From the UHGV virus genome UHGV-0098506: 24,443 nt of DNA. One strand, 5' to 3'. This stretch comes from a virus. The translations under genes and the position numbers were made by a program. Position 1 is the stretch's first letter. Every line of letters begins with the position of its first letter. The notes under the pieces were generated by a model. It made no database searches, was not told the DNA's origin, and was given only the letters and a program-made list of their open reading frames with translations. Shown here piece by piece: positions 5,913-17,835 of the stretch.

Positions 5913-6224
5913 TTAGGCGGCTGATGTTTCTTCTTTCAGGCTTTCGAGATATTTACGTGGGTCGTCGTAACATTGGCATTCGCTGTACCAATCCACCCAG
6001 CGATCAGTAAGCCCCATCTCTGATAAATCTTCATCGGTAAGGCTCTCATCCCACATCTCAAGGCCGTTAGCATTGCAGTAATCAGGCTTGATGTTGTTGT
6101 CATACTGAAAGGCGTCATAATCAGCCAGTGCGTCCATCAGGCGAACACCCTCTTCAACACTTGCCACTTCTACGATGAACGGCTTCATCGGTACTTGCGG
6201 GATATGCCAGACACGTAATTTCAT
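5913..6224 (-). CDS. Hypothetical acidic protein (103 aa, MKLRVWHIPQVPMKPF...)
   Basis: ATG at 6224 preceded by GGAGAA, immediately after an intrinsic terminator. The longer ORF-track start at 6278 would run into that terminator. Confidence 0.55.
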   Translation of the reverse strand: MKLRVWHIPQVPMKPFIVEVASVEEGVRLMDALADYDAFQYDNNIKPDYCNANGLEMWDESLTDEDLSEMGLTDRWVDWYSECQCYDDPRKYLESLKEETSAA

Positions 6225-6235
6225 ATTTTCTCCGT

Positions 6236-6263
6236 TAAAAAAATCGCCCTCACACTGGAGGGC
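6236..6263 (-). terminator. Rho-independent terminator (tL1-like) between the N-proximal unknown gene and downstream early-left genes
   Basis: Minus strand: GCCCTC-CAGTGT-GAGGGC hairpin followed by GA and T7. A second 9-bp stem hairpin (GTGTATTCA...TGAATACAC, 6325-6352) precedes it. Confidence 0.6.
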
Positions 6264-6367
6264 AAAGAAGATTTCCAATAATCAGAACAAGTCGGCTCCT
6301 GTTTAGTTACGAGCGACATTGCTCCGTGTATTCACTCGTTGGAATGAATACACAGTGCTTATTCGTA

Positions 6368-6838
6368 CTAATAAAACACCCAGTTTTCTGTTTCTTGGTT
6401 GTGTCCAAAGTTATATTCAATATCTGGTGTTGATGTATCAATATTCTTCATCCCATCAACAAGAGTTGATACAACAGCCAAATCTTGTTTGATTCTCATT
6501 AAATGGTATTTCTTCCGGCGCAATAAACTTTCAATGGCAAGTTTCTTCGTTGGGAATGCAAAAGATCTTTCTGCATTTTTTGCTACTTTCTTAATTGCAT
6601 ATCTATTTCTCTTTTGTTTCCATTCCTGTAACCACCGATTTGGTGCTGGTTTAAAATTAACAATCCAATGCGCAGGAACCAACCATGCATAATGCTCTGT
6701 CTGATGAAAAGCTATATATTGAAGTGCGAATATTTTGATCCCATCCTCTTCAACTGCCGCATGGAATCTCCAGAAAACAGGCATTCCATCATGTTCAGTT
6801 TCTGATTCAGGAAAAGGTACGCTCCATGATTTTGTCAT
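6368..6838 (-). CDS. Hypothetical protein (156 aa), AT-rich gene directly downstream of N
   Basis: ATG at 6838 preceded by GAGGTGAG, 9 nt after the N stop. Coding region is visibly AT-richer than its flanks. No family recognised. Confidence 0.6.
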   Translation of the reverse strand: MTKSWSVPFPESETEHDGMPVFWRFHAAVEEDGIKIFALQYIAFHQTEHYAWLVPAHWIVNFKPAPNRWLQEWKQKRNRYAIKKVAKNAERSFAFPTKKLAIESLLRRKKYHLMRIKQDLAVVSTLVDGMKNIDTSTPDIEYNFGHNQETENWVFY

Positions 6839-7230: not shown

Positions 7231-7457
7231 TCTCGCCACCTAATAGTTCGATGCTCGGATCGATAGATTTAATTAACCTCGGTTTTGAAGTTATGCATTC
7301 ACATAAATCCTCCTGTTGCATGTGCAGCATTGGCTGTGTTTGGCGGCTGCATTTCGCCTATGGAATTGACTTTGGCGGTGACGCGCCGGGTGCTTATCTT
7401 CCGGTTGCCGTCGTGCAGCTGCACTTCACGTCACCCCAAAGCCAACTACTCTTTGGT

Positions 7458-7498: not shown

Positions 7499-7544
7499 CT
7501 GCCAATCTGTTCCGTTTGGCTACCAGCGTCCTGCTGATGGCTAA

Positions 7545-7629
7545 AGAATACTGTAGGTATTTTATTGTGTAAATACCCAAGGTATTTATTTTTGGTGAAA
7601 TAATGATAAGCAAATGAATACAAAGGATA
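7545..7629 (-). promoter_or_regulatory. OL/pL: three 13-bp operators (ATAC-N5-GTAT family) overlapping a leftward promoter (-35 TTTACA, 17-bp spacer, -10 TATTCT)
   Basis: Operator-like sites at 7548-7560, 7573-7585 and 7617-7629 share ATAC...GTAT half-sites with those in OR. Promoter hexamers on the minus strand at 7568-7573 and 7545-7550. Confidence 0.55.
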
Positions 7630-7718
7630 TTTATTTTTTTCGGTGTCTGCTTGTTCAGTGCTTTTTATGCGGGATATGTGAAGTGGATCCCGATAGCTAT
7701 TGCTGCCGGGATTATAGG

Positions 7719-8087
7719 TTAGTCAGCGAAGGTTAAGACGAGAATTACCTTAATGATGTCTGCTACAACAGACACGGCCATAGATAAACCAAAGACGATC
7801 CAAGCCACAGTGATGTCTTCACTACCATCGTATAGAGTTCCGTAATCACTGGTGTAAGGCGTAAATGTCGCGCCTTGATACAATAGGTATAAGCTTGATC
7901 CATAGAGGATAAATGCAGATATCCCTTGTATTGCTATGATCACAAGAATCATGAAACGAGCTGATCTATGCGCCCAAGCCTGGCTTATTTTTTCTGATAG
8001 AGATTTCGCAATAAAAGCATGCGCTAAGCCGTAAATTGTCGAGATTGCCAACATCCCAAAAAAGCTTGCTATAGCGGTTCCAACCAT
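7719..8087 (-). CDS. Small multi-pass membrane protein (~122 aa) behind cI on the same strand; function unknown (candidate exclusion/abortive-infection protein)
   Basis: Starts 17 nt after the cI stop with AAGGGG 6 nt before ATG at 8087; the ORF-track start at 8108 is a TTG overlapping the cI stop. Three to four hydrophobic segments (AIASFFGMLAISTIYGLAHAFI, FMILVIIAIQGISAFILYG, VAWIVFGLSMAVSVVADIIKVILVL). Confidence 0.6.
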   Translation of the reverse strand: MVGTAIASFFGMLAISTIYGLAHAFIAKSLSEKISQAWAHRSARFMILVIIAIQGISAFILYGSSLYLLYQGATFTPYTSDYGTLYDGSEDITVAWIVFGLSMAVSVVADIIKVILVLTFAD

Positions 8088-8104
8088 AAGCGCCCCTTGC
8101 GTGA

Positions 8105-8821
8105 TCAAACCAGCCTTAGTTTTGTCTCAATTGCAACGCCTATAATCTTGCAGTTTCCATTGATTGGCACGAGAGGCCATGCAGGATTAAGTCCCTTGAG
8201 GTATTTATTTCCGCCGTCGATTATCAGCTTCTTGAATGTTGCTTCGTTAGAGTCAGAAAGTTTTGCTATGACCAAGCTGCCGTTGATCGCCTCCCTTCCG
8301 GTATCGAAAAGAACGAATGTTCCCTCTGGAATGCTTAACCCAACCGGTGCCGTCATTGAATCACCTTCCACTTTAAGCCAAAACGCATTACCTTGAATAT
8401 GCGCGTCAGACTCAAGCCAAACATCTATGTCTTTAATGGTGTATGGTTCGCATGCTTCACACCACGAGCCAGCCTGGATACTGCTTAACACCGGATACCT
8501 CTTTCCTGCTCTGTATTCCCCTGCATACCTTACGTTGGCATCGCTCTTAAGGCTTTCTGCCTGTTCTGCAACCTTGGCAGCAATTGACTGGCTAAAATCA
8601 GCAATTGAGACTTGCAACAATCGTGCAAAACCAGATGCAACCTCAACGTTTAGCGCGTTTCTGCCATTAAGATAATGGCCTACCGCTCCTTGGGTGATAC
8701 CCAGTTCATCAGCGATTGAGTATTGGGTTATTCCCAATTCTTTCTTTTTTGACTCATACAAAGCCTTAAGCCGCTTAGCGTCTTCCAGCTGTTCTGTCGT
8801 CAGTGATTTTTTATTTTCCAT
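8105..8821 (-). CDS. cI: CI-type prophage repressor (N-terminal HTH, C-terminal S24 LexA-like autopeptidase domain)
   Basis: N-terminal HTH (ELGITQYSIADELGITQGAVGHYLNG). Candidate Ala-Gly cleavage site followed by S24 motifs (GDSM...GTFVLFD...KKL). Divergent from cro across an operator region. Confidence 0.9.
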   Translation of the reverse strand: MENKKSLTTEQLEDAKRLKALYESKKKELGITQYSIADELGITQGAVGHYLNGRNALNVEVASGFARLLQVSIADFSQSIAAKVAEQAESLKSDANVRYAGEYRAGKRYPVLSSIQAGSWCEACEPYTIKDIDVWLESDAHIQGNAFWLKVEGDSMTAPVGLSIPEGTFVLFDTGREAINGSLVIAKLSDSNEATFKKLIIDGGNKYLKGLNPAWPLVPINGNCKIIGVAIETKLRLV

Positions 8822-8833
8822 AGCTTAATTCTA

Positions 8834-8898
8834 ATAGCTAAGGTACTTAAACTAAAAATACCCTGAGTATTGATTGCTTTGAATACCTGTAGTATTCT
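8834..8898. promoter_or_regulatory. OR region: three operator-like 13-mers with pR (-35 TTGATT, 17 bp, -10 TATTCT) and a divergent pRM candidate (TAGAAT 7 nt upstream of the cI ATG)
   Basis: Sites ATAGCTAAGGTAC (8834-8846), ATACCCTGAGTAT (8858-8870) and ATACCTGTAGTAT (8883-8895). pR hexamers at 8870-8875 and 8893-8898. Confidence 0.55.
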
Positions 8899-8927
8899 TT
8901 GTTCATGGTTAATAACGGAGAGTGCTT

Positions 8928-9122
8928 ATGATTCGAATGACACTTGCCGATTACGCCAAAATCCATGGACAGGCTAAAGCAGCCAGTGACTTTGGTGTAA
9001 TCCAGTGCGCTATCAGCAAGGCCATTCTGGCAGGCCGTAACATCATGGTTACGGTAAAGCCTGATGGCAGTGTGATTGGAGAGGAAGTTCGTCCTTTCCC
9101 AAGCAACAAGAAAAACAAATAG
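8928..9122 (+). CDS. cro: Cro repressor
   Basis: [62 protein letters not shown] parallels lambda Cro along its whole length. GGAG 8 nt upstream of ATG at 8928; the ORF-track start at 8922 is a GTG. Confidence 0.85.
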
Positions 9123-9128
9123 TAACAC

Positions 9129-9172
9129 CGCTCTTTAACAGTCATGGTCCTCATTCCCGCCGAAATGCGGGA
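9129..9172 (+). promoter_or_regulatory. nutR (boxA CGCTCTTTAACA plus boxB hairpin TCCCGCCGAAATGCGGGA)
   Basis: Consensus boxA 7 nt after the cro stop. boxB is identical to the nutL copy. A further hairpin GCGCAT-AAGTTG-ATGCGC follows at 9178-9195. Confidence 0.65.
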
Positions 9173-9230
9173 ATACAACGCGCATAAGTTGATGCGCATA
9201 ACTTATTATTTGTTAAGGAAATACTTACAT

Positions 9231-9509
9231 ATGGAACTTACAAGTACTCGCAAGAAAGCGAATGCAATTACAAGCAACATCCTGAATCGAATTGCTGTAC
9301 GTGGTCAGCGAAAGGTTGCTGATGCATTAGGGATCAATGAATCGCAAATTTCGCGATGGAAAGACAGCTTTATCCCAAAGATGGCCATGCTTCTGGCTGT
9401 TCTTGAATGGGGTGTTGAAGACGAGGAGTTGGCTGAACTGGCTAAGAAAGTAGCCAGAATGCTGACAAAAGAAAAAGCCCCGAAGAACGGCGAATTCTTC
9501 GAGGCCTGA
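9231..9509 (+). CDS. cII: CII transcriptional activator
   Basis: From the internal ATG: ...GINESQISRWKDSFIPKMAMLLAVLEWGV... matches the lambda CII core (SQISRWK...IPKFSMLLAVLEWGV). The ORF-track start at 9144 would run through nutR. Confidence 0.85.
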   Translation: MELTSTRKKANAITSNILNRIAVRGQRKVADALGINESQISRWKDSFIPKMAMLLAVLEWGVEDEELAELAKKVARMLTKEKAPKNGEFFEA

Positions 9510-16587: not shown

Positions 16588-16911
16588 ATGAAGATGCCAG
16601 AAAAACATGACCTGTTAGCCGCCATTCTCGCGGCAAAGGAACAAGGCATCGGGGCAATCCTTGCGTTTGCAATGGCGTACCTTCGCGGCAGATATAATGG
16701 CGGTGCGTTTACAAAAACAGTAATCGACGCAACGATGTGCGCCATTATCGCCTGGTTCATTCGTGACCTTCTCGACTTCGCCGGACTAAGTAGCAATCTC
16801 GCTTATATAACGAGCGTGTTCATCGGCTACATCGGTACTGACTCGATTGGTTCGCTTATCAAACGCTTCGCTGCTAAAAAAGCCGGAGTAGAAGATGGTG
16901 GAAATCAATAA
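16588..16911 (+). CDS. S: Holin S (class I, lambda-type) with dual-start motif
   Basis: [39 protein letters not shown]... is the lambda S protein as recalled. Met1-Lys2-Met3 dual start. Upstream CCCC-TTATT-GGGG stem-loop (16567-16581) overlaps the Shine-Dalgarno (sdi-like). Confidence 0.9.
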
Positions 16912-17371
16912 TCAACGTAAGGCGTTCCTCGATATGCTGGCGTGGTCAGAGGGAACTGATAACGGACGGCAGAAAACCAGAAATCATGGTTATGACGTCA
17001 TTGTAGGAGGAGAGCTATTCACTGATTACTCCGATCACCCTCGCAAACTTGTCACGCTAAACCCCAAACTCAAATCAACAGCAGCCGGACGTTACCAGCT
17101 TCTTTCCCGTTGGTGGGATGCCTATCGTAAGCAGCTTGGCCTGAAAGACTTCTCTCCGAAAAGCCAGGACGCTGTTGCGCTGCAGCAGATTAAGGAGCGT
17201 GGCGCTTTACCGATGATTGATCGCGGTGATATCCGTCAGGCTATCGACCGTTGCAGCAATATCTGGGCTTCACTGCCGGGTGCTGGTTATGGTCAGTTCG
17301 AGCATAAGGCAGACAGCCTGATTGCAAAATTCAAAGAAGCAGGCGGAACGGTCAGAGAGATTGAGGTATGA
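16895..17371 (+). CDS. R: Endolysin R (lambda-type lytic transglycosylase)
   Basis: [51 protein letters not shown]... matches lambda R as recalled. Overlaps the end of S. Confidence 0.9.
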
Positions 17372-17835
17372 GTAGAGTAACCGCGATTATCTCCGCTCTG
17401 GTTATCTGCATCATCGTTTGCCTGTCATGGGCTGTTAATCATTACCGTGATAACGCCATGACCTACAAAGAGCAGCGCGATAACAAGGCCAGTGAACTGG
17501 AGAGGGCGAACGCCACCATTACTGACATGCAGCAGCTCCAGCGTGATGCTGATGCACTCGATGCTAAATACGCGAAGGAGTTAGCTGATGCGAAAGCTGA
17601 AAATGATGCTCTTCGGCGCAAGCTTGATAATGGTGGCAGGGTGCTCGTCAAAGGAAAATGCCCTGTGCCATCCTCAGACGAAACCTCCAGCGCCTCCGGC
17701 ATGGGCAATGATGCCACCGTCGAACTCTCTCCAGTTGCTGGACGAAACGTTCTCGGTGTCCGGGACGGAATTATCCGCGACCAAACAGCACTGAGAACGC
17801 TTCAGGAATACATCAGGACGCAATGCCTTCGATGA
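17368..17835 (+). CDS. Rz: Spanin inner-membrane subunit Rz
   Basis: N-terminal TM helix ([18 protein letters not shown]) then coiled-coil periplasmic domain. ATGA overlap with R stop. Lambda Rz-like. Confidence 0.85.
17588..17794 (+). CDS. Rz1: Spanin outer-membrane lipoprotein Rz1, embedded in the +1 frame of Rz
   Basis: Signal peptide with lipobox (LIMVAGC) followed by a Pro-rich mature region ([13 protein letters not shown]). AAGGAG 7 nt upstream. Entirely inside Rz. Confidence 0.8.

Follow-up and report, generated by a model that had tools for sequence, protein, structure and literature searches.

What is the small gene for that some lambdoid prophages carry directly behind their repressor gene, in the place where lambda carries rexAB? 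The question is raised here by hkaS, a short gene on the minus strand of the virus genome UHGV-0098506, whose whole 24,443-nucleotide stretch (the window) was analysed. A sequence-only reading of the window had pointed to a small polytopic membrane protein right behind cI, with no RexA-like partner, as a candidate single-gene exclusion or defence determinant. Position and predicted architecture agree with that description: the open reading frame (ORF) begins 17 nt after the cI stop codon, its product HkaS is predicted to form transmembrane helices, and only cI and hkaS lie between the left and right operators (OL and OR), with no RexA-like gene among them. HkaS may be a prophage-expressed phage exclusion protein of the inner membrane, most likely one that blocks entry of the phage genome, and we give this reading a probability of roughly 0.4. 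It is the position of the gene and the architecture of its product that suggest a defence role, and that role, like the expression of the gene in the lysogen and the topology of the protein, is something that we infer.

The ORF corresponds to hkaS of coliphage HK620 (AF335538, product "unknown"), which has been listed since 2001, and the two proteins are 99.2% identical. The RefSeq entry (WP_000233126.1) reads "hypothetical protein", and PHROG 6534, a family of unknown function, is matched from end to end (E=2.4e-79, residues 1-122 on profile positions 1-122 of 122). The gene itself was thus already known, and the new part would be a function. The span first assigned to it, 7719-8108, contains a real ORF but is a TTG-extended form of 129 residues, whose start overlaps the cI stop codon. 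The ATG at 8087 is the likely start, and the 122-residue form that it gives is that of HK620 hkaS, of the RefSeq call and, end to end, of PHROG 6534. The upstream gene encodes a repressor 99.6% identical to HK620 cI, with HTH_3 (E=8e-10) and Peptidase_S24 (E=5e-24) domains in Pfam. Its stop codon, TGA at 8105-8107, is followed by the spacer TCACGCAAGGGGCGCTT of 17 nt and then by the hkaS ATG.

The gene is real, and purifying selection acts on it. All 80 of the IMG/VR viral contigs have hkaS intact, and each of its 147 places in E. coli genomes is covered to at least 80%. Divergent homologues, all of 122 residues, are 83% identical in a source named as Hafnia paralvei, 61% in Salmonella Mbandaka, 56% in Buttiauxella and 52-55% in metagenomic sequences. 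At 52% identity, with synonymous sites saturated, the reading frame, the length, the Shine-Dalgarno sequence and a C-terminal motif are kept; the Shine-Dalgarno sequence is retained in five divergent lineages whose spacers are not alike in sequence. Where synonymous divergence (dS) is unsaturated, omega, the ratio of nonsynonymous divergence (dN) to dS, is about 0.14-0.2 for hkaS and about 0.03 for cI. A spurious or decaying ORF devoid of function could be argued from the orphan family, from a G+C content slightly below that of the neighbours (42% against 45-48%), and from the high nonsynonymous share of the segregating sites in the 80 near-identical contigs (24, against 15 synonymous). Set against the conservation and a confident structure model, this explanation is hardly credible; the conservation data effectively refute it, and a chance ORF was ruled out on the same ground.

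Compared with cI, hkaS changes rapidly. Across lineages cI is 86-96% identical and HkaS 52-83%, and the dN of hkaS is about 4-5 times that of cI. Within the 80 contigs HkaS has 23 protein alleles, whereas cI, which is twice as long, has 32 synonymous and 6 nonsynonymous segregating sites and 6 alleles (Fisher p=5e-5 versus hkaS). The HkaS polymorphisms are mostly conservative and located in the first two helices. Residues 93-94 (7806..7811, minus strand), at the periplasmic end of the third helix, display a high-frequency dimorphism, Thr-Val versus Ser-Met, with one Tyr-Met, for which either selection or hitch-hiking by two old alleles could be responsible.

The surroundings of the gene support a two-gene transcription unit. 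Six copies of the operator motif AAATACC-N3-GGTATTT are present in the window, where chance would give 0.8. The OL copies lie to the left and the OR copies to the right of cI-hkaS (Table 1), so that cI and hkaS are the only genes in between. The HK620 record annotates OR1-3 with pR, and OL1-3 with pL, at homologous places. In a promoter consensus scan a pL-like promoter overlaps OL on the minus strand (-35 element starting at 7573, -10 element ending at 7545). The OR region should contain pRM and pR, and the scan of that region gave no match for pRM; nor did it detect a promoter-like site on the minus strand inside cI or in the cI-hkaS spacer. Along the minus strand the order is OR/pRM, cI, hkaS, a hairpin, OL/pL, nutL and N, an arrangement like the cI-rexA-rexB-OL of lambda. 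The hairpin (fold of -13.7 kcal/mol, z=-3.1) likely ends the cI-hkaS transcript. Hairpins of unrelated sequence stand at the same place in the other four lineages (z from -2.8 to -5.4), and the one in Buttiauxella is a canonical terminator with a T6 run. In the window, a consensus terminator scan found no canonical minus-strand terminator 3' of hkaS. Since the hairpin has no U-tract and no terminator was called, we can only infer termination at this site. The HK620 authors annotate tIMM about 80-110 nt beyond the hkaS stop. The 17-nt gap, the Shine-Dalgarno sequence, the lack of an internal promoter-like site, the hairpin after the stop, the bracketing by OL and OR, and tIMM after hkaS in HK620 all support the operon reading, and HkaS is probably made in every lysogen.

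Sixteen phage records, some of them deposited twice, contain hkaS: HK620, HK630, HK140, mEpX2, HZ41, HF4s, phi296, phi367, 611R6 and two Shiga toxin (Stx) 2c phages. They are exactly the records with a window-type cI at 99% identity or above. The carriers comprise a P22-like podovirus (HK620), lambda-like and HK97-like siphoviruses (HK630, HK140, mEpX2) and Stx phages; with virions of several types among them, the cI-hkaS cassette is independent of virion type. In E. coli, hkaS and the window-type cI are each present in 146 of 5,426 complete genomes (about 2.7%), at 147 places, and the linkage is 1:1 there as in the phage records. Prophages of O111 and O145 strains are found among the carriers, beside the Stx2c phages. 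An intact 238-residue cI stands directly upstream of hkaS in all 79 viral contigs that include upstream DNA.

A block at about 7500-9500, with OL/pL, hkaS, cI, OR, cro and cII, is common to 72-80 of the 80 contigs (78-80 across 7600-9200) and has mosaic flanks, which argues that hkaS belongs to the immunity cassette and does not move as an accessory gene in its own right. The plasmid collection contains no copy. The gene is known from prophages and phages only, and no homologue was found outside prophage immunity cassettes on chromosomes or plasmids. It is kept in prophages of four genera (E. coli, Salmonella, Hafnia and Buttiauxella). All homologues whose context was examined start 17-20 nt behind a cI with the same C-terminal domain, and none of these contexts has a conserved partner gene. 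At the cI 3' end of another lambdoid prophage, NC-SV of E. coli NC101, a small RNA, svsR, is reported to limit phage infection (PMC12803456). If NC-SV has an HK620-type cI with hkaS, hkaS adjoins the svsR locus, which could matter for reading its phenotype.

The link between the two genes can be placed within cI. A Buttiauxella prophage (CBCPKK010000004.1; L018:2333-3369) encodes a 215-residue cI with a different N-terminal DNA-binding domain, together with a P22-type Cro; the S24 domain of this cI is very similar to that of the window, and hkaS is present at 56% identity. This implies a recombination joint inside the cI linker, by which the immunity specificity would have changed while the S24 domain and hkaS were kept. 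Conversely, in Serratia phage OS31 it is the N-terminal domain of cI that lies much closer to its window counterpart, the S24 domain being less alike, and there is no hkaS. hkaS is strictly co-inherited with the C-terminal half of cI and not with the DNA-binding domain. Such tracking would suit a role of HkaS as a lysogeny-maintenance factor that tunes RecA-stimulated cleavage of cI and induction, for instance by acting on the C-terminal domain of cI or sequestering it at the membrane. The precedent is Hex of phage 434, whose gene shares the pRM transcript of cI and which stabilises the lysogen, in that it prevents RecA-mediated autocleavage of the repressor (PMC3564112). Like hkaS, hex directly follows cI and is strictly tied to its own cI type (434, Sf6 gene 38, Huey), and the most conserved surfaces of HkaS are predicted to be cytoplasmic. 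However, the closeness of the two genes accounts in full for this tracking, as only 17 nt separate the end of the S24 coding sequence from hkaS. Moreover, the S24 domain hardly varies and HkaS diverges 4-5 times faster than it does, and tight co-adaptation would predict otherwise. Hex itself has a signal-peptide-like N-terminal segment and no transmembrane bundle, and is unrelated to HkaS (hhalign probability 0.06%). We therefore regard a role of this kind as very improbable.

Hydropathy analysis of HkaS gave three transmembrane helices, at about residues 1-27, 42-72 and 90-121. An AlphaFold2 model built on an alignment of eight sequences (predicted local distance difference test, pLDDT, 89.3; predicted template modelling score, pTM, 0.76) has helices at 2-29, 31-38, 41-74 and 89-121, of which 31-38 is short and amphipathic, and a small hairpin at 78-86. 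Of the "three to four" membrane helices initially counted from the sequence, three are therefore retained and a fourth is not. Loop 1 carries 3-5 Lys or Arg and 0-1 Asp or Glu in six divergent lineages, and loop 2 carries 0-1 and 2-4 respectively; in all six the net charge is positive for loop 1 and negative for loop 2. By the positive-inside rule these charges predict a periplasmic N-terminus and a cytoplasmic C-terminus, and HkaS is predicted to be a three-pass inner-membrane protein of N-out/C-in topology. The amphipathic stretch K-I-S-Q-A-W-A-H-R-x-A-R-F, on the cytoplasmic side, has a mean pairwise identity of 71%, and the third helix one of 64%. Variation is greatest in the periplasmic loop (49%). 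There is hardly any in the C-terminal D110-x-x-K113-x-I-L-V-L-T-F-A-D, and polar or charged residues are conserved within the helices (Q54, S65, D110 and K113).

The sequence-only reading had recognised no known family. With respect to homology this was correct, although the gene was already listed and has a family of its own. Scans of HkaS against Pfam gave nothing above cutoff, only sub-threshold generic matches such as a transmembrane match to Cation_ATPase_C (17.6 bits, below the 27.3 cutoff). There was no match in NCBIfam, no defence family of PADLOC-DB v2 at E<=1, and no match in a sequence profile search of the PDB; Foldseek of the model against the PDB and BFVD gave nothing below E=0.1, and hhalign comparisons with individual proteins revealed no relative. 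A word-indexed search of 5.8 billion proteins recovered only 12 close relatives (52-98% identity), and an exhaustive hidden Markov model search of 1.84 billion 50%-identity representatives recovered two, one of them a fragment. By these searches HkaS is a true orphan, a member only of PHROG 6534. No paper was found that names hkaS together with HK620; "hkaS" alone led to fungal herbarium codes only, and literature on mEpX2 and HK620 lysogens yielded no hkaS phenotype. A paper on co-transfer treats cI-cro and says nothing of hkaS (PMC9836094).

We propose the following model. In HK620-type lambdoid prophages hkaS would be the second gene of a two-gene immunity operon, transcribed with cI from pRM in the lysogen and from pRE while lysogeny is being established. 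From its own Shine-Dalgarno sequence it would be translated into a 122-residue inner-membrane protein with three helices, the N-terminus periplasmic and the C-terminus cytoplasmic, which would guard the lysogen at the inner membrane against other phages. The most probable mechanism would be interference with genome entry, a superinfection exclusion like that of SieA, gp15 or Imm, with HkaS acting alone; a response of the killing type appears less likely. P22 SieA blocks DNA injection and has its best-conserved motif on the cytoplasmic side (PMC10883804). The small prophage-expressed inner-membrane protein gp15 of HK97 stops genome entry and leaves the outer-membrane receptor untouched (PMC3594210), and T4 Imm also blocks genome entry, according to a review table (PMC11436027). 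Thus the characterised small single-gene inner-membrane proteins of prophages compared here, SieA and gp15, block genome entry, which suggests the same for HkaS. The rapid change of HkaS and its variable periplasmic loop fit a surface exposed to incoming phage parts, and relaxed constraint would explain them as well.

HkaS is not one of these proteins under another name. By prediction it would share with SieA the single-gene, prophage-expressed organisation, the three predicted transmembrane helices and the inner-membrane location. However, SieA has 162-164 residues, and none of the aligned HkaS sequences, on inspection, contains its motif FxRYPxEAxxFNK (PMC10883804). Furthermore, sieA is located between genes 16 and 9, by the ejection-protein genes, in P22-like phages only, whereas hkaS is located in the immunity region of phages of several virion types. 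With the motif absent and the location different, a distant SieA type was ruled out. As to gp15, which HkaS resembles as a small prophage protein of the inner membrane, it belongs to a YebO-like family with bacterial homologues, of which HkaS has none, and it forms an accessory unit of its own in the tail gene cluster and not in the immunity operon.

Several observations weigh against an entry block, or against the operon from which it would be expressed. HkaS has no homology to a known exclusion or defence family, either in PADLOC or above cutoff in Pfam. The cassette occurs in phages with very different virions (the podovirus HK620, the siphoviruses HK630, HK140 and mEpX2, and Stx phages), so that hkaS is not matched to one injection machine as sieA is beside its ejection-protein genes. 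The best-conserved parts of the protein, the amphipathic helix and the C-terminal DxxKxILVLTFAD, are by prediction cytoplasmic, which points to a partner in the cytoplasm or at the inner leaflet rather than in the periplasm. The faster evolution of hkaS may be the weak constraint typical of transmembrane helices. Finally, the hairpin behind the gene lacks a T run.

The same place in the operon, between cI and OL/pL, is that of rexAB, and HkaS might instead provide an abortive infection of the Rex kind without RexA. It would then be a latent pore or channel, RexB-like or holin-like, that opens on superinfection and collapses the membrane potential, with loss of the cell. Polar and charged residues conserved inside its helices would suit a channel, and Rex has been described as acting by ion-channel formation and depolarisation (PMC11436027). 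RexB and HkaS are alike in that their genes follow cI and precede tIMM and OL/pL in the immunity operon, and in that both are small polytopic inner-membrane proteins (by prediction for HkaS) fixed to one cI type. However, they share no homology: hhalign gave a probability of 0.6%, and the Pfam scan reported no RexB model at E<=1. RexB has 144 residues and four hydrophobic segments, as read from its sequence, against 122 residues and three helices in HkaS, and a four-helix RexB homologue was accordingly ruled out. No sensor partner accompanies hkaS, and a protein of 122 residues that both senses and kills would be unusual. Class I holins of the lambda S type have a three-helix N-out/C-in topology, the same as that predicted for HkaS. 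HkaS lacks the charged C-terminal tail of holins, matches no holin in Pfam or PHROG, aligns with the S-type holin of the window at an hhalign probability of 0.2%, and is encoded outside the lysis cassette (about 16588-17835), and with no homology and the wrong location a holin or antiholin was ruled out. Rex-like killing by HkaS thus appears unlikely.

A function unrelated to phages was also considered, in which HkaS would be a lysogenic-conversion factor that serves host fitness, for example in envelope stress, in resistance to colicins or antimicrobial peptides, or in transport. Prophage morons often encode small proteins of the envelope that contribute to host fitness, among them Lom, Bor and small stress-response proteins (PMC3594210), and the strict retention of hkaS across four genera would be in keeping with this. 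The confinement of the family to prophage immunity cassettes speaks against it, as does the lack of likeness to any transporter or stress family beyond the sub-threshold Cation_ATPase_C match, and we judge such a role to be decidedly unlikely. A more far-reaching possibility is that HkaS is the first of a family of membrane immunity proteins that work alone, a single protein of 122 residues sensing and stopping superinfecting phages of several virion types with no sensor partner, or else that it is coupled to the S24 domain, for example by gating RecA-dependent induction from the membrane, as one half of a co-evolving two-part switch; we consider this quite improbable. A similarly small share of our expectation is assigned to none of the explanations.

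The interval from cI to N is a documented hotspot of prophage-expressed defence genes such as rexAB and bstA (PMC8585504, citing Degnan 2007). The suggestion that the cI-to-pL interval is such a hotspot also held in our survey of lambda, 434, Sf6, Huey, Erwinia phage 49, OS31 and mEp213. Behind cI, lambda has rexAB; 434, Sf6 (gene 38) and Huey have hex; and Erwinia phage 49 has a 200-residue ORF, 12 nt after cI, with weak sub-threshold TPR matches. Fostie has a 97-residue ORF in the cI-to-N position, which is a gap without a gene in Serratia phage OS31, ENT39118 and mEp213. In the Salmonella prophage BTP1 the position is taken by bstA (PMC8585504), like hkaS a single gene downstream of cI, there a defence gene and presumably on the repressor promoter. 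Unlike HkaS, BstA is reported to act at phage DNA replication sites, by abortive infection (PMC8585504), and not at the membrane, and HkaS has no PADLOC match. The question of whether the slot varies among related prophages had also been raised, with a conserved position named as counting against the idea. It varies among more distant cI relatives and is invariant within the HK620-type cI, as the 1:1 linkage and the cI upstream in 79 of 79 contigs attest. This invariance was not taken as evidence against a defence gene, because rexAB and hex are each just as firmly tied to one cI type, and because farther out the position is indeed variable. As a separate observation, 434 Hex (L017:2109-2513; "repressor protection protein") starts with a signal-peptide-like segment, MIRIAALLSILLTTSANSEC, an odd feature in a protein whose reported target is the RecA-mediated cleavage of the repressor (PMC3564112); the Huey copy is annotated PagP.

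Table 1. Positions of hkaS and of the immunity-region features around it, numbered along the window.
Feature	Position	Strand	Basis
OL operator triplet	7546-7562, 7571-7587, 7616-7632 (7545..7632 with the pL-like promoter)	minus	motif search
Hairpin, candidate 3' end or terminator of the cI-hkaS transcript	7687..7712	minus	7 nt past the hkaS stop
hkaS coding sequence, 122 residues (likely start)	7719..8087	minus	ORF, ATG at 8087 with Shine-Dalgarno sequence, PHROG 6534 match
cI-hkaS spacer, 17 nt, Shine-Dalgarno AAGGGG (plus-strand CCCCTT at 8093-8098)	8088..8104	minus	read from sequence
cI repressor, HK620 immunity type, 238 residues, first of the two-gene unit	8105..8821	minus	domains, HK620 identity
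OR operator triplet	8832-8848, 8856-8872, 8881-8897 (8832..8897)		motif search; between cI and cro
cro, lambda-type Cro, divergent from cI	8922..9122	plus	Pfam Cro, E=4e-26

Overall, the window is a P22-like prophage of mosaic structure, with genes for an integrase, Cro, CII, replication protein O, a DnaB-type replication protein P, an S-type holin, a terminase and a P22-type portal; Rfam detected no RNA family in it. In the early-left operon a gene at 5913..6278 (minus strand) encodes a superinfection exclusion protein of the P22 gp17 type (PF17420, E=1e-55; PHROG 1510), so that the prophage already has at least one annotated exclusion gene. Between this gene and N, in the pL operon, a 156-residue ORF (6368..6838, minus strand; PHROG 1636, a family of unknown function) has a G+C content of 36.7%, and of 29% at third codon positions, against 47.7% for the window, and looks like a foreign accessory gene. 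The nutL-N segment at about 7285..7450 (minus strand), which includes a 41-residue ORF at 7299..7424, is present in HK140 and missing from HK620. It is common to only 19-35 of the 80 related contigs and marks the left mosaic joint of the immunity cassette.

The genes known from this position serve exclusion or abortive infection (RexAB, BstA) or the stabilisation of lysogens (Hex) (PMC8585504, PMC3564112, PMC11436027), and hkaS would be the corresponding cargo of the HK620 immunity type. As the immunity operon is among the few prophage regions for which transcription is expected in every lysogen, a gene behind cI would be made continuously, a cost probably paid for by some benefit. It is reasonable to see in HkaS a candidate for the exclusion of other phages, one that is worth attention but comes as no surprise. 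Should HkaS prove inert or a minor fitness factor, hkaS would be one more hypothetical gene in a known hotspot. A phenotype, if found, would extend the known prophage defences by a single-gene membrane determinant of very small size, and would also matter for phage typing of the carrier strains or for phage therapy against them.

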